NCBI GenBank assembly: GCA_951406725.2
Contig: OX597815.1
Coordinates: 79,670,001 to 79,734,000, forward strand
Length of the DNA stretch: 64,000 nt
Source: Octopus vulgaris
Lineage: Eukaryota
Direction: 5' to 3'
In this document: positions 21,801 through 61,395 of the stretch, in pieces
How positions within the stretch are numbered: the first letter of the stretch is position 1
Layout of the letters: each line of letters starts with the position of its first letter
The notes under the pieces: model-generated
Databases searched by the model: none
Seen by the model: the letters and a program-made list of their open reading frames with translations, nothing else
What the model was told of the DNA's origin: nothing
Translations under genes and position numbers: made by a program

Positions 21801-22800
21801 GAATGTTAAAGGAATTCCGCACTGGACATCTAGGAATTTCTAGAATGAAGTCACTTATGACGAGTTACATTTACTAGTTAAAAATAGATCTAGTTATTGA
21901 GAAGTTGGTAAAATCCTACAGAGCGTGTGCCTTTGCCGAGAAATCACCACCTATAAAATTTCAACCCTAGCCCAAGACCGACATTCCATGATCCAGACTA
22001 CACATAGACTTCGCAGGACCGTTAAACCGTTCATATTATCTCACAGGGGTCAGAAATGTGTAAATGTAGCAAACCGACATCCACGATAACAGTCAAATTT
22101 CTACACGAACATTTTGCTAGGTATGGTGTCCCGGATACCATAATCTCCGATAACAGCACACAATTCATGGCGACTGAATTTAAGAATTTTTGCAAGATGT
22201 ACTCAATTGAACATATTACTACTTCTCCATATCACCAAAGATCTAACGGGAAAGTGGAAAGGTTCGTGGATACATTTAAAAGAACATTAAAGAAATCAAG
22301 AAAGGTACTAGTCGATGACGCAGCATTGGCACACTTCTTGAGGGTTTATAGGATAACACCAAACCCAGATGCTTTTTCAGGCAAGTCGTCTGCTAAACTA
22401 AGGTTTGCTCGAAAAATAAAGTCAGATTTTGACAAGCTGCTACCAGTAAGAAAAACAAATAGGGAAAACGCTAAAAATACGACAAAGTTTTTTAATATCG
22501 ATGACAAGGCGTTTTTCAAAATATATAAAAGTGAAAGACAAGGTTGGGCAGACGAAGTAGTAACAAAAAGAATAGGCAAAATGACATATATGATAATAAG
22601 AGGCGAAAATGGGAACAAAGGCATTTAAACCAGGCAAAAACTAGATATATGGAAAAAAAGAAAAGTGATGCCCATGGAAGTGTTCTATGACATCTTACAT
22701 GTTCCAATGCCATAAGAAATCGAACCTAGTCGTAGCAGCACAAGAAAGAGGAAACAAACAGAACGGCTGGAAGTAGTGTCTAAACGGAAGAAATATTAAA
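18884..22800 (+). mobile_element. Ty3/Gypsy LTR retrotransposon gag-pol, pseudogenised (K02A2.6/Mag-like)
   Basis: Domain relics in order: gag (YNPEQCTTFSAYFRKFE), Zn knuckle CIDCGKFGHKSSHC, protease LDTGSDISII, RT AYLDDILI, RNase H LAADASESGIG, integrase LHIDFAGP / ISDNSTQF / SNGKVERFV. The PR-RT-RH-IN order is Gypsy. Many stops and frameshifts. Confidence 0.93.
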
Positions 22801-23904: not shown

Positions 23905-23990
<86 letters not shown>

Positions 23991-23992
<2 letters not shown>

Positions 23993-24284
23993 AGGCGCAA
24001 TGGCCCAGTGGTTAGGGCAGCGGACTCGCGGTCGTAGGATCGCGGTTTCGATTCCCAGACCGGGCGTTGTGAGTGTTTATTGAGCAAAAACACCTAAAAG
24101 CTCCACGAGGCTCCGGTAGAGGCTGGTGATCCCTGCTGTACTCTTTCACCACTCTTTCTCCCAGTCTTTCTTCTGTTAGCCTGCTCGCTTAGCCAGCGGG
24201 GTGACGTCATTCGAAGGCTAAAACAATGCGAACGCATTGTGACCAGCGATGTGTAACTACATCTGATGGACTGGTCGGTCACGT
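23991..24284 (+). mobile_element. tRNA-derived SINE
   Basis: A-box TGGCCCAGTGG and B-box-like GTTTCGATTCC. The body is repeated at 24983-25160 and 3788-3905. Confidence 0.85.
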
Positions 24285-24361
24285 ATATATATGCACATAT
24301 GTATATACATATATACATAAATATATATACATATATACATATACATACATACACACACACA

Positions 24362-24799: not shown

Positions 24800-25160
24800 T
24801 ACACTCTTTACTCTTTTACTCGTTTCAGTCATTTGACTGCGGCCATGCTGGGGCACCGCCTTTTAGTCGAGCAGACCGACCCCAGGACTTAGTCTTTGTA
24901 AGCCCAGTACTTATTCTATTGGTCTCTTTTGCCTAAAAGCTAAGTTACGGGGACGTAAACACACCAACATCGGTTGTCAAGCGGCAGGGGGTGGTGATCC
25001 CTGCTGCACTCTTTCACCACTCTTTCTCCCACTTTCTTCTGTTGGCCTGCTCGCTTAGCCAGCGGTGTGGCGTCGTTCGAAGGCTAAAACAATGCGAACG
25101 CATTGTGACCAGCGATGTGTAGCAACATCTGATGGTCTGGTCGGTCACGAGATCACGTGA
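24800..25160. mobile_element. Two abutting SINE fragments (minus-strand tail 24800-24982; plus-strand body 24983-25160)
   Basis: The first part is the reverse complement of the 44300-44470 tail. The second part matches 24117-24284. Confidence 0.75.
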
Positions 25161-25248: not shown

Positions 25249-25335
<87 letters not shown>

Positions 25336-25444
25336 GTAAAAAGTGAAAAAACTACAGAAGGCTTAAAGGTTAAAAAATATATATATTTGCGTCAATATGT
25401 CTGAAGAATATTAAAAATGTTTTTCTTACAATAACATAATTTAG

Positions 25445-25483
25445 AAGAAAGACCGGTTTCGCGTTTAGCTTTTCAAATTTCTT
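25445..25483 (-). ncRNA. Minimal type I hammerhead motif, U3-A8 core variant
   Basis: Minus strand AAGAAA-T-TTGAAAA-GC-TAAAC-GC-GAAACCGGTC-TTTCTT: 6-bp stem I, 2-bp stem II, palindromic ACCGGT stem III, GUC site. Confidence 0.7.
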
Positions 25484-25598
25484 GCGACGTTATGTTTATA
25501 TTGAACAGAGTTATATTTATGTTTATGTTTAAAAGAGTTCTAAATAAGGGGAGGTAGTGAGTGATTTCTTCCGGTGTAAGGGAGATAATCGCTTGAAA

Positions 25599-27152
25599 TT
25601 AAAAAAAAATTTTTTTTCCTTTCCCTTGGTGTGAATTTCTCTGTATCAGTATGTTGGCATGGTTAAGTCTGGGCTTGTACTTTTCAATGAAGAATGTTTC
25701 CTTGTTTAGTCTAATTTGTGTTGATGATCCGATAGCACATTGGTAAAATGGAAAGATTAAAAATTGTGGCAGTAGTTGCTTTGCGCATTTCTCAATGTGC
25801 TCACTAAAAGGTATCATTCTGTATTCTGGGAATGCAATCTGTTGTCGATGCAGTGTGCATCTACGTCTGAGTGATAGTCCCGTGGATCCCACGTAGTCTT
25901 GGTGGCAGCCCGAGCATTTTATGACATAAATTATGTTTTCAGAGGCACAAGTAAAGTTAGATTTGATCTTGAATTTCTGTCCCTCTTTAAAGAGGAATTC
26001 TGATCCTTCTAGCAGGTTTGGACATGTTGCACAGTTCGATCTACCACATTTTTTTACTTTTGCATCCGTAATTTCAGAAAACAATTTTGCCTTTTTGAGA
26101 ATCTTTTTAAGTGATTTAGGTTGTTTGTAGCTTTTAATGATTTGGTGTATGTTTAGAATTTCCTTTAATTTGGGGTCCTTATGAAGTATTGGTAAATTCT
26201 GGGTGATGATGGTGAAGGCTTCTTTGTTTCTGGGGTTGTATGTAGATATGTAAGGTAGTATTTTCGGGGAAGGTGTGTTGTTGTGTTGAACTTTTCTTAA
26301 AGTTTCTATGTTGATTTCTGTTGCACGTCTGATCCCATCCTCTATGAGTTGAGCTGGGTAGTGTCTGTCAATTAGGGTGTTTTTGAGTTCTTGCAGTCTA
26401 AAGTTCCTGGTATTTTGTTCTGACACTATTGTGCATATCCTTCTTGCAAGGTTGAAGGGGATGTTTGTTTTAGTGTGTCTTGGGTGGCATGAATTAAAAA
26501 GAAGGTATTGTTTGGCGTCTGTGGCTTCGTAAAAAATGTCTGTTTCTATTTTAAGGCTAATTTTTTAAATTAGTATATCCAAGAACGGGAGCTCCTTTTG
26601 GTTGTATTCCATTGTGAACTGTATATTTGGGTTTATGCTGTTCAATAGGTTTTTAAATTTTAGGAGTTTATCTGTGTTTTCATTCCAGAGTATAAAACAA
26701 TCGTCTAAGAATCGTTTCCAATTCTCTTTTATGTATTGAAAAAGGGGGTTTCCAAAGATTGATAAAGATTCCTGGTAAATGATTATTTCCATGTAGCCCA
26801 TTGTTAGGTTCGCAATGACTGGTGCTGCCCTTGTACCCATAGCAATTCCGGATTTTTGACGGTAAAATGTATTGTTAAACATGAAGTGGTTATTATGTAG
26901 GATGAATTCAATTGATTTAGTAATGAATTCTTTACTGATCCTTTTTGGTATTTCTTCCGGAAATTGGTCCAGCCAGAACTGTATTGCCTCTAGTCCATAA
27001 TTATGAGGTATACTGGTATACAAGTTAACTACATCAAATGAAACCAAGATTGTTTCTTCCTTGGCTTTTTTTGGGAGGTGGTTTAACATATCTAAGTCAT
27101 CTCTGATATGGCTATCGATATGTTTAAGGAAGGGTTTCAGGAGGATGTCCAT
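25599..27152 (-). pseudogene. PLE reverse transcriptase + GIY-YIG endonuclease (frameshift near 26567)
   Basis: RT motifs LVSFDVVNLYTSIP, GIAMGTRAAP, WKRFLDDCFI, LPFLDI. Endonuclease CASENIIYVIKCSGCHQDYVGST...H...E...PRLN. Confidence 0.92.
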
Positions 27153-28544
27153 GGTTTCGTTAGAGCTTCTCGAAAACATATACTTTTTGTAGAGACGCAT
27201 CAATCATGAATTGGGTAGAAGACATGAGATTCTGTACCAGTTGCTAAAACAATATTATCCAATGTGTTGGGCCTCAGTAAAATTAGGAGGCTATTTCAAG
27301 CTTTTCCATTAGTTTCTCTTGACAATTCAAGGAAAGTTGTGTTTGGAAGTAACATGTTAAAAAGTCTGTTGTTCTCAAACGGTGTATCTACTGTGAATGC
27401 TCACAGCACTGCAAACTCTTCAAAAAGCACCCAAGGACCAGGAGACGAGGATAAAGTAGGTGACGTATTCAACCTACCATTTGAAAGCAGCAAGAAAGAA
27501 GAGACCGCTGTGTGTTTATCATGGAATGTTTGTTGCTATCAGAAAGAGAGAAGAAAATGTAGAAGATATGAAAAAGGGAAAGGATATTTGGACAGAATGT
27601 TAGAAAAGGTTGGTTGATAGATTAGGTAGACAGAGAGGCTATTAACACATATTTTACGGCGTGAATGTCCTTAAGATCAGTGAGAGTCTTAGATCTGACA
27701 AGAATGATAATAGATCTATGAAAATTTAAAATTATAATGTCCAGGAGGGGAAAAATAGAAAAAAAAAGTAAAATAAGCTAAACTTAGATGTTGCTAGTGT
27801 TGTAATTTTTTTTTTTTTTATCAACAGTAGCGAACAGGAAAATTCATTATACGTCGGACAAAACGTTTAGCAGCATTTTTCCGCCTCTGCATTTTAAGCT
27901 CAAATACCGCTGAGGTCAATTTTGCTACTCATGCTATTGGATCGATAAAGTAAAGTACTAGTCAAGTGGTGGTGCTGGCGCAATCGATCTGCCCCTAACT
28001 AATCGACTTGCCCTCTTCCTCTAAAGTAGCTGGCCTTGGGCCAAAATTTGAAACAGTTGTTGTTATTGATGTTGTTTAACTCTCGGAAAACTCCTATCAA
28101 GTGAGCATATGATCAAAGGTATTCCAGACATTAATTCTCGCGTCATTTCAAGAGTTTCTAGAACTATGTTAGTCTAATGTGTGCTTCTCTTTATTAAGAT
28201 GGTAGGATCTGATTTGAGGGACATTTGAAGATTTGGCTGCAAGCTACTTCACTGGTCAGACACTTTGAAATGGTTTCTTATACTAGAATAAATACTTTGA
28301 AGGAAATACTTTGTAGTATGCAACAGAAGCATATATTTAAGTGAAACAAATCTACAGACTTGAAAAGGGATTACAGATTTGACTAATCGAGATTCACTCG
28401 CTGCTATTCTTTGGCGTTCACCGAAAGGGGTTTAGAAATGTATGTCCTATCATGACGCACGAAGCTTTAGACATTATGAAGAAATGAGAAGTTGTGACGT
28501 TCACTTATCCAATAGTACCAACAACTTAAAGCGGAGAAAAAGTC

Positions 28545-36224: not shown

Positions 36225-36264
<40 letters not shown>

Positions 36265-36268
<4 letters not shown>

Positions 36269-37042
36269 AAACAAGTCAAAAATAGAAAATGCTAAAATAA
36301 TTTTATAGTGAACATTTCAGTACCGGTTTCGGTCATTTTGAGACCTTTTCAACTGTAACGATTAAATAATTAAATTTAGAAAAATTAGAAGAAAAGTTTT
36401 TTTAAAAGAATATTTCTATAGTAGTGTTCAGATTTAAGTGGCATTCTGCCTTTCTCTGACTCCCTTGTTTGCACTTGTCGGAGGTCGTTGTGAGTTCTTG
36501 GAAGGGTAGTAGAGGAAGAAGGCTGGTGGGGAAAGGGGGATGGGAGAATCTGGGAGTGCCCTGATGGTCGTATTTTGAATGGTCAGTGGCGGCTGGCAGT
36601 CTCAGTTCAATTCAGGAGAATATTTATATTGACAGGCTTGTTTATAGAATTAGCGTAGGTGTTATACTAAAAAACATTAGAGACAAAGTTAAGGGGTAGG
36701 GGGTGGAGAAGAGAGAAGAAGAAGAAGAAGAAGAAGAAGAAGAAGAAGAAGAAGAAGAAGAAGAAGAAGGAGAAGATGACGATGATGGTGGTGGTGGTGA
36801 TGATTATGACGACGATGATGATGATAATGATGATGATGAAGAAGAAGAAGAAGAAGAAGAAGAAGGAGGAGAAGGAGAAGATGGTGGTGATGATGGTGGT
36901 GATGATGATGACGACGATGATGATGATAATGATGATGATGAAGAAGAAGAGGAAGAAGAAGAAGAAGAAAAAAACAGAGAAGGGGAATATGAATGGGTGT
37001 AAGTATAGCTATGAAGGGGCTGATTAGTAATGGATTCTATGG
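36265..37042 (-). repeat. 3' pLTR (contains (GAA)n/(GAT)n tracts and a hammerhead motif)
   Basis: Reverse complement of 39632-40424 with only a few differences. Confidence 0.93.
36313..36360 (-). ncRNA. Minimal type I hammerhead motif, U3-A8 core variant
   Basis: Minus strand CGTTACAG-TTGAAAA-GGTC-TCAAAAT-GACC-GAAACCGGTA-CTGAAATG: stem I with one mismatch, 4-bp stem II, palindromic stem III, GUA site. Confidence 0.75.
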
Positions 37043-37100: not shown

Positions 37101-39370
37101 TTAATTGTTTGTCGTAGACCCGTTTAGAAGTGGCTTGTATTTTGTAATAAAGAGATTTTCTTTACTTATTCGTTGTCTCGAGGTTGTATCGTCCCTAAAT
37201 TGGTAGAGGGGGAAAATTCTGAAGTTTGGTGTTTTTTTGTTGGCGCAAGTATCTATGTGTTGGCTAAAAGCTATTTTTCTGTTTTGGGGAATTTTTATCT
37301 GGGATCTGTGCAGGGCCATTCGTTTACGCAAACCATTTTTTGTTTGGCCTATGTACTGCTCTTGACACCCGGAGCAGGTTAGTGAGTATATTAGGTTCTC
37401 CGAAGCACATGTGAAGTTGCTTTTCACTGTAAACCGTTGTCCCTGCTTGAAGGAGAACTCTGATCCCTCAATTAGATAGTCGCATATCCCGCAATTGGGT
37501 CTTCCACATTTTTTTACTGTCGGCTTCTGTGTTGAGGAGTGAATTCGGGCTTGTGTAAGGAGACTTTTCATGGATCTAGGCTGTCTTTTGCTTTTTATGA
37601 TCGTGTGTGTTTGGAGGATTGTGTTCATTCTGTGGTCTTTTTTTAGGAGGGGTATGTTGTGGAGGATGGTGTCGAAGGCTTCGTTATTGAGAGGGTTGTG
37701 TGTGGAGATGTATGGTAAGGCTTTTGGTTGTAAGTTTTTCTTTGATTTGGGATGTCTCAGTTCTTTGATGTTAAGTTGAAGGGCACGTTGAATGCACTTG
37801 TCAATAAGTGAAGGTGGATAGTTCCTGGTGATTAGGGTATCTTTTAGTTCTTGTAGTCGTGTGTCTCTGGTGTTTGCGTTAGAGACTATAGTGCATATCC
37901 TTTTTGCTAGATTGAAGGGGATATTCATCCTGGTGTGTCTGGGGTGGCATGAATTGAATGGAAGATATTGCTTAGAGTCTGTAGGCTTATAGTATATGTC
38001 TGTTTCTATTATATTATTAGCTTTCTTAATGAGGATATCGAGGAAGGGGAGTTGTTGTTGGCTATATTCCATCGTGAATTAGATGTTTACGTCCAGTCCG
38101 TTTAAAATTTTCTGGAATTCTATGAGTTTTTCTATATTTTTATGCCAAAGGATGAAACAGTCATCTAGATATCTCTTCCAGTTGTTTTCTATGTAGATGG
38201 AGAAAGGGCTGCCATATCTTTCTAGAACCTTACGATACAGACTGATCTCTAGGTATCCTATGACTAGGTTGGCAAAGGAGGGGGCCATTCGTGTACCCAT
38301 CGCAGTCCCCGATTTTTGTCGGTAGAAGTTGTCATTGAAGGCGAAGAAGTTATTTTCCAGGATGAATTTGACCCCTTCTATCACAAATTCTTTTTTGATG
38401 CGGTGTGGTAGTTCGTTGGCGTGATTCTCTAGTCAGAATTGGATTGCCTCTAGTCCTAGGTTGTGGGGGATATTGGAGTAGAGGTTGACTACATCGAAGG
38501 ATACCAGTATGGTGTTTTTGTTTATAGTATTCGGTAGGTGATTGAGCATATCTAAGTCGTCCCTTATATAGCTTTTGACATGTTTGAGGAGTGGTTTTAA
38601 CAGGGTGTCTAAAAAGTTACTGAGGCGGTGGGTTTCGCATGCGGGACCTGCTATTATGGGTCTCAATTTGAGGTCATTAGGATTAGGGACTTTAATTATT
38701 TTGTCTGTAGCTATCTTGCATGCGTTGCTTATTTTTTCACTTTTGTGGATCTTAGGTATACCGTAGAATTGGCTAGTTTTACTTGTGAAATTGGTCATAT
38801 AATCATATTCTTTGTCGGTGAGCCCTGCTTTGTATGGGTTTAATATGGATTTTAGTTCCCTCATTATTTTTTGTTGACTGTAGTTTTGTGCCTTTTCATA
38901 GTATGTTGTGTCTTCCAGCATAGAAAGTACCAAAGTTATGTAAAATGTCGTATCCATTAAGACAACAGCACTCCCTTTATCGGCCTCTTTGATTGTTATT
39001 GTTTTATCTAGTTTTAATTTGTTCAACTCAGCCCATTCTTTTTTGCTGAAGTTTGGTTTGTGTTTTTGTTTGTGCATATGTTGATATGGGTAATTTGATA
39101 TGTGGTCACAGAAATCATCAAGTGTTTTATTCTTACCTTTCGAGGGGGTGTAGTTACTCCTATTTCTGGCTAACGATTCGTCCTCGTTGTATTTATCGTA
39201 TAGCTCCTCAGTAAGTCTTAATTTTCTGCAGAATTCTGCGATGTCTTCTTTCATTTCATTGTAGTTGGGGTGTTGTGGGGTGGGTGTAAACTTGAGTCCT
39301 TTGGAAAGTATGTTTATTTGGTTTGCTGTTAGTTCCTTGTGAGTTAGATTAATAATTTTTATTACTTTTG
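37101..39370 (-). pseudogene. PLE polyprotein (RT + GIY-YIG) with two in-frame stops and one 5' frameshift
   Basis: IINLTHKELT...(fs)KGLKFTPTP, IKEADKGSAVV, FYGIPKIHK, LRPIIAG, SFDVVNLYSNIP, GTAMGT, WKRYLDDCFI, NLIYSLTCSGCQEQYIGQT. The ORFs 38433-39254, 38079-38384 and 37101-38072 share one frame, broken at W>TGA (38433) and Q>TAA (38079) relative to the 26.5-kb paralog. Confidence 0.93.
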
Positions 39371-39631: not shown

Positions 39632-40424
39632 CCATAGAATCCATTACTAATCAGCCCCTTCATAGCTATACTTACACCCATTCATATTCCCCCTTCTCTG
39701 TTTTTTTCTTCTTCTTCTTCTTCCTCTTCTTCTTCATCATCATCATTATCATCATCATCGTCGTCATCATCATCACCACCATCATCACCACCATCTTCTC
39801 CTTCTCCTCCTTCTTCTTCTTCTTCTTCTTCTTCTTCATCATCATCATTATCATCATCATCGTCGTCATAATCATCACCACCACCACCATCATCGTCATC
39901 TTCTCCTTCTCCTTCTTCTTCTTCTTCTTCTTCTTCTTCTTCTTCTTCTTCTTCTTCTTCTTCTACTTCTCCACCCCCTACCCCTTAACTTTGTCTCTAA
40001 TGTTTTTTAGTATAACACCTACGCTAATTCTATAAACAAGCCTGTCAATATAAATATTCTCCTGAATTGAACTGAGACTGCCAGCCGCCACTGACCATTC
40101 AAAATACGACCATCAGGGCACTCCCAGATTCTCCCATCCCCCTTTCCCCACCAGCCTTCTTCCTCTACTACCCTTCCAAGAACTCACAACGACCTCCGAC
40201 ACACAAGTGCAAACAAGGGAGTCAGAGAAAGACAGAATGCCACTTAAATCTGAACACTACTATAGAAATATTCTTTTAAAAAAACTTTTCTTCTAATTTT
40301 TCTAAATTTAATTATTTAATCGTTACAGTTGAAAAGGCCTCAAAATGACCGAAACCGGTACTGAAATGTTCACTATAAAATTATTTTAGCATTTTATATT
40401 TTTGACTTGTTTTTTCATATATAT
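39632..40424 (+). repeat. Inverted 5' pLTR copy
   Basis: Reverse complement of 36265-37042. Confidence 0.93.
40321..40368 (+). ncRNA. Second copy of the U3-A8 hammerhead motif in the inverted pLTR
   Basis: CGTTACAG-TTGAAAA-GGCC-TCAAAAT-GACC-GAAACCGGTA-CTGAAATG, with one stem II mismatch relative to the left copy. Confidence 0.7.
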
Positions 40425-47003: not shown

Positions 47004-48247
47004 TGTGTCTGTGCAAGTTGGTGTGTGTATATGTGTATATGCATATGGGCTTGTGTGTGTGTACTCGTACGTATAACGATATGTATGTACTCTTTTAGCC
47101 TTTATCCAACAGAGATTAGCAGGTCTAAACTTCGAAGTCACTGTCACCCCTCTTCTTGAAAAGTATAATAAACATGTACTCTACAAAAATGTATTGTGTA
47201 ACATCAGCTTGTTTTTATTATAACTCGACATAAAAACAAACATTAATAGACGATACACATAATATGATAGCTTTCCGCATCTTATCCAAGCGTCCAAAAG
47301 ACCCAACACTCAAACAAATACGGGAGTACGTCCTTAGAAATGAAACTCCCCCAATACTAAATAGGAAATATACATAGTAGATACCATACCCCCATAGCCA
47401 CAGTTTACACAGGTAGAGTAGAATAGTTAGTGGGCTGTTATGTAGATAGATGTAAGTGTGTATGTGGAGGTGTATGTATGAATGTGTACATACACATGTA
47501 TACAAGCATGTGGATGTGAAAATAAATAGATCAACAGACAGATAGGTACATAGGTTATATGAACAGACAAGCACACATACGCAAATGGAGACTGAAATAG
47601 ATGACCATATATACACACACACTTTACTTCACACAAGGACACATATGGAGACACGTGTTCACACATATGGAGATGCACATCCACACATACAAACACGGTA
47701 CATAGTTGCAAAACACACACACACACACTCAGACATGCACACACATGGAGACAGAGGTGCATACATATACAAACACATGCACACACACACACATATATAA
47801 AACACACAAAGACGGACACGCAAGCACATGAATATGCAGAATACATAAATACAGATGCACACACATACATACATATATACATACACACATGCATATATAA
47901 ATACATACATATATACATACATACATACATACATACATACAGACATGCATGCATAGGCGCACACACACACACTGACCCCCACGCATGCGCACAAACAAAC
48001 AAAAAGGAACGCAGTGTAAATAACAGAGTCAAGACTATTGAAAAGGTTGTAAGACGCAACGAAAATTTTAGGAAAATAAAAATAAGAAACAAATGGAAAT
48101 TTTACCGGTGAGTGTCTTAAATTATAAGGCACAAAAAGAAAATGATTCTCCCCAGACACAACAGAATATGCTTCAACACACGAACTCACATAAAGAATCT
48201 TGCAAGCCAAATCCAAAAACGATATATATATATATATATAATATATA

Positions 48248-50706
48248 CTAGCAGAAAGACCACCCTCCAGGCGGTTTTCTGCTAGCCACTCGATAATAAT
48301 TACACATGTGATTCCTAATTTTGATAATTTTTGTATTTTACGTCTAATTATTTCTTTGTGTAATTATTTCTTAGTAAATATTGCTTTCATTATTTTATCA
48401 GTCATAATCTCTCTTTTTTTAAAGAGTCAATCTGTTATATATTTATCATTAATAATTGGTAGAACTTACACAGGTGCACATAGATAGATGTATAGACACA
48501 CAGATACACACGCACATACACACACACACACACATATACACATGCACACACAAATCTGGTGCAGTGAGAACGCATGGGAATGATGTTTCCTTACTTTTTC
48601 AAATATACCCAAATTTAAACGATATCATTCATTTGGCATGTGTTGAAAAATGCCAAAATAAATTAATTCCATACAAATATATATTACAATACATATGATT
48701 TATGTGTTAATTCTATTTACTGAAACATGCTAAAAAGTATATTTTGTTTTAAAGTAGTATCTCCTTGTAGACACCGTTGTCAGTAATCATACCATTTCCA
48801 TTTCTCTCAGCCAATATTTCTCTCAGCCAACTCTAGATAATGCAACATACAGCTGACCATGTGAGAAGAATTGTGTCGGAAGATATATTCCAATTTGTTC
48901 AGAAGTCTGTTCCTGTGCCTTGTTGCACGTCAAGGCAAAAGCTGGCTTGACAGGAAATTGTTTGCATGTAAATGTAAATGGAAATTCGATTTCTTGAGAC
49001 ACGTGGTATTCGTGGGATTAGTAGAGTTGATCCTGCATAAGGACCAAAAGCAACATCAGCCTCAATAACATGAGTGTGTGCCATTGCAATGTCCATTAGT
49101 AGTATCTAAATTTCTCAGAAACATTATGCATCATTTTCTCTTCAGTTTGAGAATGTGTGGTGGAAGCCCTGACGTTGTAAGTTTGTTGATGAATTCGATT
49201 GGGTACAGAGTTTCATTATCAACTGTATCTGAGCTTCTGTATATTTTTAGCTTACCTGGGATCTTGGTCAACAGAAAATCATTCACAAATTGTGCTGCTT
49301 CGTTTGTTAGAGTAACGATGGTTCTATTTGCAAGCCACACAGGGTTTGTGAAGTTATTTTTGAGGTCAGCATATACAAAATCTCATAGATCTGAAAGAGT
49401 ACCACTTTCAAAGCAAGGGTCATTGGGTAGTTTGATTTTGAATTCACCTAGGCTTTGTTCAACAGAAATGTCACCATTTCTTATATCAAGAAGGTAATTA
49501 GCAAACTCTCTTTCATCAGAATGACCTTCTGTAAGGAGTCTAAGATTGGTTGTCAACTCCACTACTTCCAAAGAAAAGATCTCTTTAGTGTTGCATCAAT
49601 AATTTGTGATCTGACACCATTATTTTGAAGTAGAATATTCTCCTCTCGAGATACCCTCTCCTCTCGGTCATGTGTAGCGGAAACAGAATCATGTCCACGT
49701 TCCCCGTGCATATTCAGGCATCTGTTTCAGTCGCTTTGCCCTGGTTTCATCTGATTCAATTTCTTTCTGCCATTGTGCCTTTGCTGCTAAATTTTCTTTT
49801 TCAGTTGCATATTATATATAAATGAAAGCTCGTTAAGAACTATCTTGTTTACCGTGCTAGAAACAGCAGCGATTATGTAGTTATTATTGTAAGGCTTATA
49901 GTGTTCCAATAAAATCACTTCTTCATTTAAGAAAAAAATATACCGGTATGTTAAAGAATTTTCATTTTATCAAAAATATTCCTTTAACTATCTCCGGAAA
50001 AATGATAATATTCTTGAAATTGTGCCTCGTATCAAAGTTATACAGCTATTTTGTATAAACATGAAATGAAAAAATCGTATAAGTGAAAGCTTGTTAAAAT
50101 ATATCTTGTTTAGCGTGCTAGAAGTAGCAGCGATCACATAGTTATTATTGTAAGGCTTATAACGTTCCAAGTAGCCATACCAAGAAAATCCTTTCTTCAG
50201 TTAAAAATAATAATAATAATAATACCGGTATATTAAATAATTTTCATTTTCTCAAAAATATTCATTTAATAAACTTCGGAAAATGATAATATTCTTGAAA
50301 TTGTGTCTCGTATCAAAGTTATATAGCTATTATTAAATTATCATTAATGAAAATAGAGGCGAGCGAGAATGAGAAACAGTTGCGAATAAAAACGTAAAAT
50401 GTTGCCTGCAACGAATTAATATTGTTTATTATTAAACATTAAAATCTACTTAGCATTGAATGTAATGAATATTTAAATTAATGAAGAAGTGAACGTAGTG
50501 AATACAAAGAATATTTAAATTTGCGAGAATTTGGAGTTTAAAAAATTCAATAAACTTCAGAATTCGAAATTATAGGCAATTTCTTAGAACATGAATTTAT
50601 GAAAAATATTTCCAGACGATCAGGCTTTTAATATTGCTTTCTTTTAGTACTTTTAGTAATTGTTACATACCTAATTAATAAGCAGCTTTCTCCATTATAG
50701 TATAGA
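48248..50706 (-). mobile_element. Helitron, internally deleted, both termini present
   Basis: Minus-strand 5' end A|TCTATACTATAAT at 50706. The 3' end has the hairpin ACCGCCT-GGA-GGGTGGT, then TTTCTGCTAG|T at 48248 (A/T target, no TSD). PIF1 helicase relics lie inside. Confidence 0.88.
48740..49575 (-). pseudogene. Helitron PIF1-like helicase C-terminal fragment
   Basis: ELTTNLRL...FANYLLDI.NG, YPIEFINKLTTSGLPPHILKLK, LLIPRIP, KAQGQT...FSHGQLYVALSRV. Confidence 0.9.
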
Positions 50707-60926: not shown

Positions 60927-61002
60927 ATGTTTCGGCTGATATGCCCTCCAGCCTTCATCAGGTGCCTTAGGGAAATTTGGAACCTGGGTTCTCATTCCTA
61001 AG
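60927..61002 (-). repeat. Inverted partial copy of the hammerhead-bearing repeat
   Basis: Minus strand CTTAGGAATGAGAACCC...CACCTGATGAAGGCTGGAGGGCATATCAGCCGAAACAT matches 61251-61326. Confidence 0.85.
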
Positions 61003-61237: not shown

Positions 61238-61395
61238 CATCGAAAAATACCTTAGGAATGAGAACCCTGGTTCAAAGTTTCCCCAAGACACCTGATGAAG
61301 GCTGGAGAGTATATCAGCCGAAACGTTGTGTTAACAAAAAAACAAGATGATGACAAATATCTGTACATAATTCCTCATCTCTTAAATATAGAAAT
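61100..61395 (+). mobile_element. SINE-like element: tRNA-like head + (AAT)n + hammerhead-containing tail
   Basis: A-box TGGCGTAGCGG and B-box GTTCGATTCC (spacer shortened), (AAT)n at 61152-61234, HHR at 61287-61332. Confidence 0.65.
61287..61332 (+). ncRNA. Minimal type I hammerhead motif
   Basis: GACAC-CTGATGA-A-GGCTG-(10 nt)-CAGCC-GAAACGTT-GTGTT: 5-bp stems I and II, ACGT palindromic stem III, GUU site. Confidence 0.75.

Follow-up and report, generated by a model that had tools for sequence, protein, structure and literature searches.

A broken Neptune-type Penelope-like element (PLE) of Octopus vulgaris ends, very probably, in a minimal type I hammerhead with a U3–A8 core that is conserved across its family and likely cuts only as a dimer paired through the palindrome ACCGGU. 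The motif lies at 25445–25483 on the minus strand of the window (the whole 64,000-nucleotide stretch of contig OX597815.1 analysed here), and its identification draws on the sequence, on shuffled controls and on contigs from public sequencing runs. Observed directly are the anatomy of the motif, a position shared with the canonical hammerheads of related elements, invariance across the family and the occurrence of two forms that differ in one base, A1.1.

Results

The motif sits at the 3′ end of a PLE, on the same strand as the open reading frame (ORF) and ahead of a (TA)n tract. The 3′ piece of the ORF (25599–26564, minus strand) comprises the reverse transcriptase (RT) thumb, a CX4CxxC linker (~26048–26022) and a GIY-YIG endonuclease with CCHH residues, and is 56% identical to an ORF at 37101–38078; the piece has no Pfam match of its own at E 0.001, and the 37101–38078 ORF matches Pfam GIY-YIG (E 1.3 × 10−4). 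In the same frame lies a 5′-truncated RT piece (26565–27203, minus strand; Pfam RVT_1, E 1.1 × 10−8), which ends at an in-frame stop (26565–26567). RT followed by a C-terminal GIY-YIG domain with CCHH is the organization of Neptune/Nematis-type EN+ PLEs, and the CX4CxxC linker, present in both PLEs of the window, agrees with the CX2-5CxxC linker between RT and endonuclease that marks the Neptune/Nematis type (PMC8557442), so that the element is assigned to one or the other type. From its sequence, we take the 25.4-kb element to be a broken Neptune-type PLE, with Neptune or Nematis indicated by the linker. This copy is solitary (its 3′ end occurs just once in the window), 5′-truncated and interrupted by a stop, and so is probably inert. 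Its 3′ non-coding region (25331–25598, minus strand), recognized from sequence as a pLTR-type end and very abundant in public runs, is followed by the (TA)n tract (~25253–25330, also from sequence). The hammerhead had been placed about 115 nt past the GIY-YIG stop by a reading of the sequence alone (hereafter the sequence-only reading), and this placement holds: the letters at 25445–25483 are exactly those that it gave, and 115 nt separate them from the stop at 25599–25601. Elsewhere in this part of the window are an integrase core fragment (22026–22628, plus strand; Pfam rve, E 5.8 × 10−7), probably from a decayed long terminal repeat (LTR) retrotransposon, and repeats at ~23990–24285 and 24990–25150, between microsatellites. 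These repeats are SINE-like and presumably resemble octopus SINEs, as would fit a cephalopod host; ARAGORN detected no tRNA in the repeat at 24–25 kb.

Read from the sequence 5′ to 3′ along the minus strand, the motif consists of the stem I 5′ arm (25483–25478); an unpaired U (25477) between stem I and U3; the UUGAAAA core from U3 to A9 (25476–25470); stem II with its loop (25469–25461; 2 bp, a 5-nt loop and G10.1–C11.1); G12 to A15.1 (25460–25457); the stem III palindrome ACCGGU (25457–25452); C17 (25451); and the stem I 3′ arm (25450–25445), with a cut predicted from this anatomy 3′ of C17, between 25451 and 25450. Both catalytic boxes (Y3 U4 G5 A6 N7 R8 A9 and G12 A13 A14) are present, with U–A as the 3–8 pair and canonical bases at the remaining positions, as are A15.1–U16.1, H17 (here C17) and the very short palindromic stem III. 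Stem II, closed by G10.1–C11.1, is short at 2 bp for the family of PLE minimal hammerheads, and no extra base separates A9 from position 10.1, where G10.1 directly adjoins A9. Stem I spans 6 bp with one U looped out; an alternative register with a U1.1–U2.1 mismatch was dropped on inspection, as stem I breaks at the fourth pair. Beyond an internal loop, the predicted fold contains a possible distal extension of stem I (25495–25491 with 25438–25434, minus strand; 25434–25495 overall), the ten positions of which show no substitution at or above 5% in the run contigs.

Several searches bear on whether the motif might be a chance resemblance in AT-rich DNA. With a descriptor that was drawn up after the motif had been seen and that allows a 1-nt bulge, a match with a stem I of at least 6 bp arose in none of 200 windows shuffled by dinucleotide, and 5,000 shuffles of the 3′ untranslated region (UTR) yielded no match at all. 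Among stretches of viral contigs that matched the core pattern only (n = 40), none combined a stem II of at least 2 bp with a stem I of at least 6 bp; these stretches, used solely as a control, behave as chance, with one of the 40 having both stems at minimal length. In favour of chance, the monomer fold is no more stable than its shuffles (z 0.82), its lowest-energy form having stems I and II formed and the core mispaired, and up to E 10 none of the Rfam hammerhead families (clan CL00010) matches the 25.4-kb motif, the sole Rfam hammerhead row being a weak HH9 match to the 36.3-kb motif (19.7 bits, against a cut-off of 52). Against it stand the shuffles, the canonical hammerheads at the same position in all nine informative relatives and the invariance of the motif across its family (both below), by which a chance origin is already refuted; we regard it as extremely improbable. 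A search for the exact 25-nt motif in the genome contig collection returned 0 matches, and no protein relatives of the PLE were found in the viral and genome contig collections.

The window holds a second PLE, which is a sister to the first. Its hammerhead (36318–36355, minus strand), identified from sequence, fold and descriptor, has a U3–A8 core, a 4-bp stem II and A at H17, and recurs (40326–40363, plus strand; sequence and fold), with one change that breaks a stem II pair, in an inverted repeat of the 3′ region at the 5′ side of the element (793 nt, 98.6% identical; 36257–37042 and 39632–40424), an arrangement of a kind described for PLEs (PMC8557442). The 25.4-kb and 36.2–40.4-kb elements share 62% of amino acids in RT, 56% in the 3′ piece and 67% of nucleotides, in agreement with the earlier description of a second, divergent Penelope family, and in a tree of 12 rows (the 2 window elements and 10 relatives, with L006 and L012 excluded as too short and no named references) they form sister lineages with support of 100/99. 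Both families have the same 18 core bases, and four-fold sites are identical at 20 of 55 (~29% expected at random), so silent sites are near saturation. Stems I and II had been described as wholly different from those of the 36.3/40.3-kb motif, which is too strong for stem II, in that both have G10.1–C11.1; pairing had been described as kept, and stem I does pair, but only with one U looped out, in a register unlike that of the 36.3/40.3-kb motif. The two families had further been offered as evidence of covariation. This evidence is weak at most: the families are sisters, and the alignment of their stems and UTRs does not rise above that of shuffled sequence (45 of 500 shuffles score as high), which leaves no columns where compensatory changes could be counted. 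Because the families are sisters, U3–A8 in both is most simply a single inherited change, and probably one event on the sequences at hand; the informative double change is U3–A8 versus C3–G8 in the relatives.

Relatives were found at 12 loci of metagenome contigs, 9 of which extend more than 300 nt downstream and represent ~6 distinct families. In all nine (L001–L005 and L008–L011), a minimal hammerhead with a C3–G8 core lies 145–205 nt past the endonuclease match, the same place after GIY-YIG as in the 25.4-kb element, where U3 falls ~186 nt past the same conserved endonuclease end; the remaining three loci, in which the sequence past the match extends for 1, 15 and 180 nt, had no hammerhead. 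Across 12 motifs, which were chosen by their fit to the descriptor, include one misaligned in its 3′ half (L005) and are uncontrolled for relatedness, the 3–8 pair was C–G in eight, U–A in four and unpaired in none. The string GAAACCGGT occurs in seven of the nine canonical-core relatives and so is not specific to the U3–A8 variant. Besides the C3–G8 core, the relatives differ from the 25.4-kb motif at the base of stem II, where a U10.1–U11.1 mismatch replaces G–C in seven of nine (L001:2086, L003:3207, L004:1593, L008:1481, L009:3050, L010:2306 and L011:2631); the stem II sequences of these seven are fully different, and a mismatch of this type is mentioned in PMC3088659. L005 has a 2-bp stem II, as at 25.4 kb, and so does a second minimal hammerhead of L010 (2450–2495, minus strand), which is antisense, also contains GAAACCGGT and lies ~180 nt farther downstream than the sense motif.

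Other hammerhead-like features were noted in the window. A third U3–A8 minimal-hammerhead-like motif (48035–48071, plus strand) has a stem I of 3 bp, a stem II of 4 bp that follows an extra G, and the palindrome AATT. A (TA)n tract comes ~150 nt after it and no ORF precedes it, and it may be a PLE 3′ end standing alone; descriptor matches as loose as this one occur in 8 of 200 shuffled windows. The pattern match at 48585–48602 fails the stem descriptor and was rejected. The minimal hammerhead at 61287–61332 (plus strand) has the canonical CUGAUGA and 5 bp in each of stems I and II; an inverted copy of it, at 60929–60966 (minus strand), ends after GAAAC. With this canonical motif and the U3–A8 motifs, both core types occur in one genome.

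How far the motif is conserved among copies was assessed in contigs from 4 of 24 listed runs, labelled as four organisms, that were aligned to 25335–25640; all run data are assembled contigs, variation was measured on summed contig depth and the position table for these contigs is complete. None of the 39 motif positions carried a substitution at or above 5% of depth in any of the four runs, an invariance that is dominated by abundant subfamilies, and copies with several changes may escape alignment. By comparison, 24 of 78 positions were variable in the two flanks (Fisher P = 1.4 × 10−5) and, across the remaining 3′ region, at 35 of 225 positions there was variation (P = 0.002), in tests that treat sites as independent. 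The longest variant-free run in the 3′ region is exactly 25445–25483, limits that the sequence-only reading had fixed beforehand; further invariant blocks of 33, 26 and 23 nt occur in the same region. Nor did the runs contain a common C3–G8 form: copies with CTGAnGA had been named as an observation that would refute the sequence-only reading, and there is no substitution at or above 5% in the 39 nt in four of four runs. Identity across families, invariance in the runs and the hammerheads of the relatives together support the earlier proposal that the U3–A8 core is selected and not decayed. Nearly invariant blocks were also observed at 25534–25594 and 25335–25409, and depth drops steeply past 25594, where loose ends are varied; many copies may consist of a short 3′ unit that lacks the ORF. 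In two runs, one contig each rejoins the end of the ORF region to a point just past the hammerhead (25441–25622, with short sides), joints that give a weak hint of head-to-tail units of ~200 nt with two motifs per transcript.

Conservation of this kind could also mark a hammerhead descendant that has lost its ability to cut and persists in the 3′ end as a signal for protein binding, folding or reverse transcription. Consistent with such a role are the 2-bp stem II and unstable fold, the wide spread of a form without A1.1 (below), from which an intact cut site may be dispensable for multiplying, the independence of in vitro insertion from cleavage in a PLE of Anolis (PMC11167929) and the non-cleavage functions that PMC4209133 leaves open. 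All catalytic-box positions and the 3–8 pair are nevertheless kept across families despite nearly saturated silent sites, and a PLE hammerhead is reported to cleave with its protein and to respond to changes of C3 and G8 (PMC11167929); on balance, we consider loss of cutting unlikely and retain a hammerhead that cuts as the preferred reading.

As we envisage it, a single change from C3–G8 to U3–A8 would have taken place in the common ancestor of the window’s two families and preserved the core pair. A monomer would be unable to close stem III stably, and two copies in a tandem transcript would pair through their ACCGGU palindromes to form a double hammerhead, which, by energy evaluation, folds at −11.5 kcal/mol, against −1.8 kcal/mol per monomer fold. 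The dimer would cut 3′ of C17 and so process the RNA of the element, probably with assistance from the element’s protein, as for the Anolis PLE.

The copies in the runs differ from this one at 25450–25451 (minus strand), where others carry an extra A (position 1.1) that is absent here. A plus-strand T inserted behind 25450, equivalent to A1.1 in the RNA, was found in eight contigs (2, 1, 2 and 3 in the respective runs), and loose ends at 25451 with the same extra base in 11, 7, 3 and 4 contigs. A1.1 would pair with U25477 to give a perfect 7-bp stem I; in family copies with A1.1, this 1.1–2.1 pair seats stem I directly on the core, whereas the present copy loops out one U. The sequence-only reading, which left this U unpaired, missed its pairing with the extra A in other copies of the family. 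Among 13 listed long pieces with at least ten bases on both sides of the site (a small part of all pieces), 7 had a single one-base insertion, 2 had no gap and 4 had several gaps. By raw depth, the insertion amounts to 0.03, 0.05, 0.8 and 6% in the four runs, low values that probably reflect short contigs being clipped and not gapped; under a crude model of such clipped contigs, the form without A1.1 has shares of 0.49, 0.44, 0.53 and 0.16. Both forms would then be common, with roughly half of the copies, as a rough estimate, lacking A1.1. A private lesion of this copy was considered as the source of the missing base and dropped, since two long contigs in other runs also lack A1.1, and the large modelled share of this form likewise opposes it. 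No form without the U appears among the listed contigs, so loss of A1.1, and not gain of the U, offers the simplest history, and in the modelled stem the A1.1 form is the intact one. By analogy, the cut site of the form without A1.1 is probably impaired and a poor substrate, because natural hammerheads from salterns in which extra bases (2a, 2b) separate stem I from position 3 are impaired in cleavage (PMC3088659).

Selection might act on the form without A1.1 itself: in a mixed dimer it could serve as enzyme and yet resist cutting, so that cleavage is confined to the intact partner. The runs do contain both forms, no substitution at or above 5% falls in the 5′ half or the core, and in the modelled geometry of the double hammerhead the missing base belongs to the substrate strand alone. 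One deletion in a successful master copy, however, explains the spread without selection; moreover, no mixed tandem was seen in the run contigs, and the share of the form is itself a rough estimate. We therefore hold selection of this form to be improbable. The same low expectation applies to its larger implication, that a high-copy PLE family might keep intact and enzyme-only forms whose mixed tandems are cut on one side only, as an asymmetric RNA-processing switch; the data fit equally well with a single deleted master copy that simply spread. Were the form without A1.1 nonetheless an enzyme-only partner, it would represent a new mode of dimer control, and if it multiplies without a cleavable site, this would bear on whether PLE hammerheads are needed for transposition.

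Discussion

The sequence-only reading missed the publication of the U3–A8 variant for PLE hammerheads: Cervera and De la Pena (2014; PMC4209133) describe the U3–A8 swap in ~1,300 minimal hammerheads of Schistosoma mansoni. Both U3–A8 and the UUGAAAA string are thus known in PLE hammerheads, and the motif is of a published kind. The available parts of PMC6765202, PMC7151607 and bioRxiv 10.64898/2026.07.22.740005 leave our reading unaltered. What the 25.4-kb motif adds to the published variant is one more host and a Neptune-type lineage, together with a clean natural comparison, at the same site, of U3–A8 in two sister families with C3–G8 in ~6 related families. The alignments of Lunse et al. 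from 2017 may already cover this PLE family or the unpaired-U form.

Of the known systems, the hammerhead of the Anolis Poseidon PLE, in which the 3–8 pair matters, may serve to model the action of a weak motif. According to PMC11167929, this hammerhead needs the element’s protein to cleave, hammerhead mutants had no effect on in vitro insertion and the cut site did not coincide with the end of any RNA-seq read. It differs from the 25.4-kb motif in belonging to the Poseidon clade, in its canonical core, in its overlap with the start codon and in that its activity was measured, whereas that of the 25.4-kb motif is predicted.

The natural variants of Perreault et al. (2011; PMC3088659) resemble the 25.4-kb motif in their U3–A8 covariation, two-base-pair stem II and weak stem III; in that study, natural U3–A8 hammerheads are active in vitro and a 2-bp stem II is common. 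Those hammerheads are mostly prokaryotic or viral, and the insertion tested there was 2 nt, in contrast to the 25.4-kb motif, where one U is unpaired through the absence of its partner A1.1.

A further known system is the minimal hammerhead of the Cercyon PLE of S. mansoni (PMC4209133). Relative to it, the 25.4-kb motif belongs to a Neptune-type element in another host and has a stem II of 2 bp (versus mostly 4–8), no extra base between A9 and G10.1 (a consensus trait that some rows of Fig. S3 also lack), a palindrome of 6 nt and an unpaired U before U3. The two are alike in being type I hammerheads at a PLE 3′ end, with U3–A8, UUGAAAA, G10.1–C11.1, a palindromic stem III and U-rich and AU-rich flanks; the PLE-associated row S. 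mansoni (4) of Fig. S3 begins UUGAAAAA, with the same UUGAAAA letters, and the action of PLE minimal hammerheads as dimers, the mode favoured here for the 25.4-kb motif, is reported in the same source.
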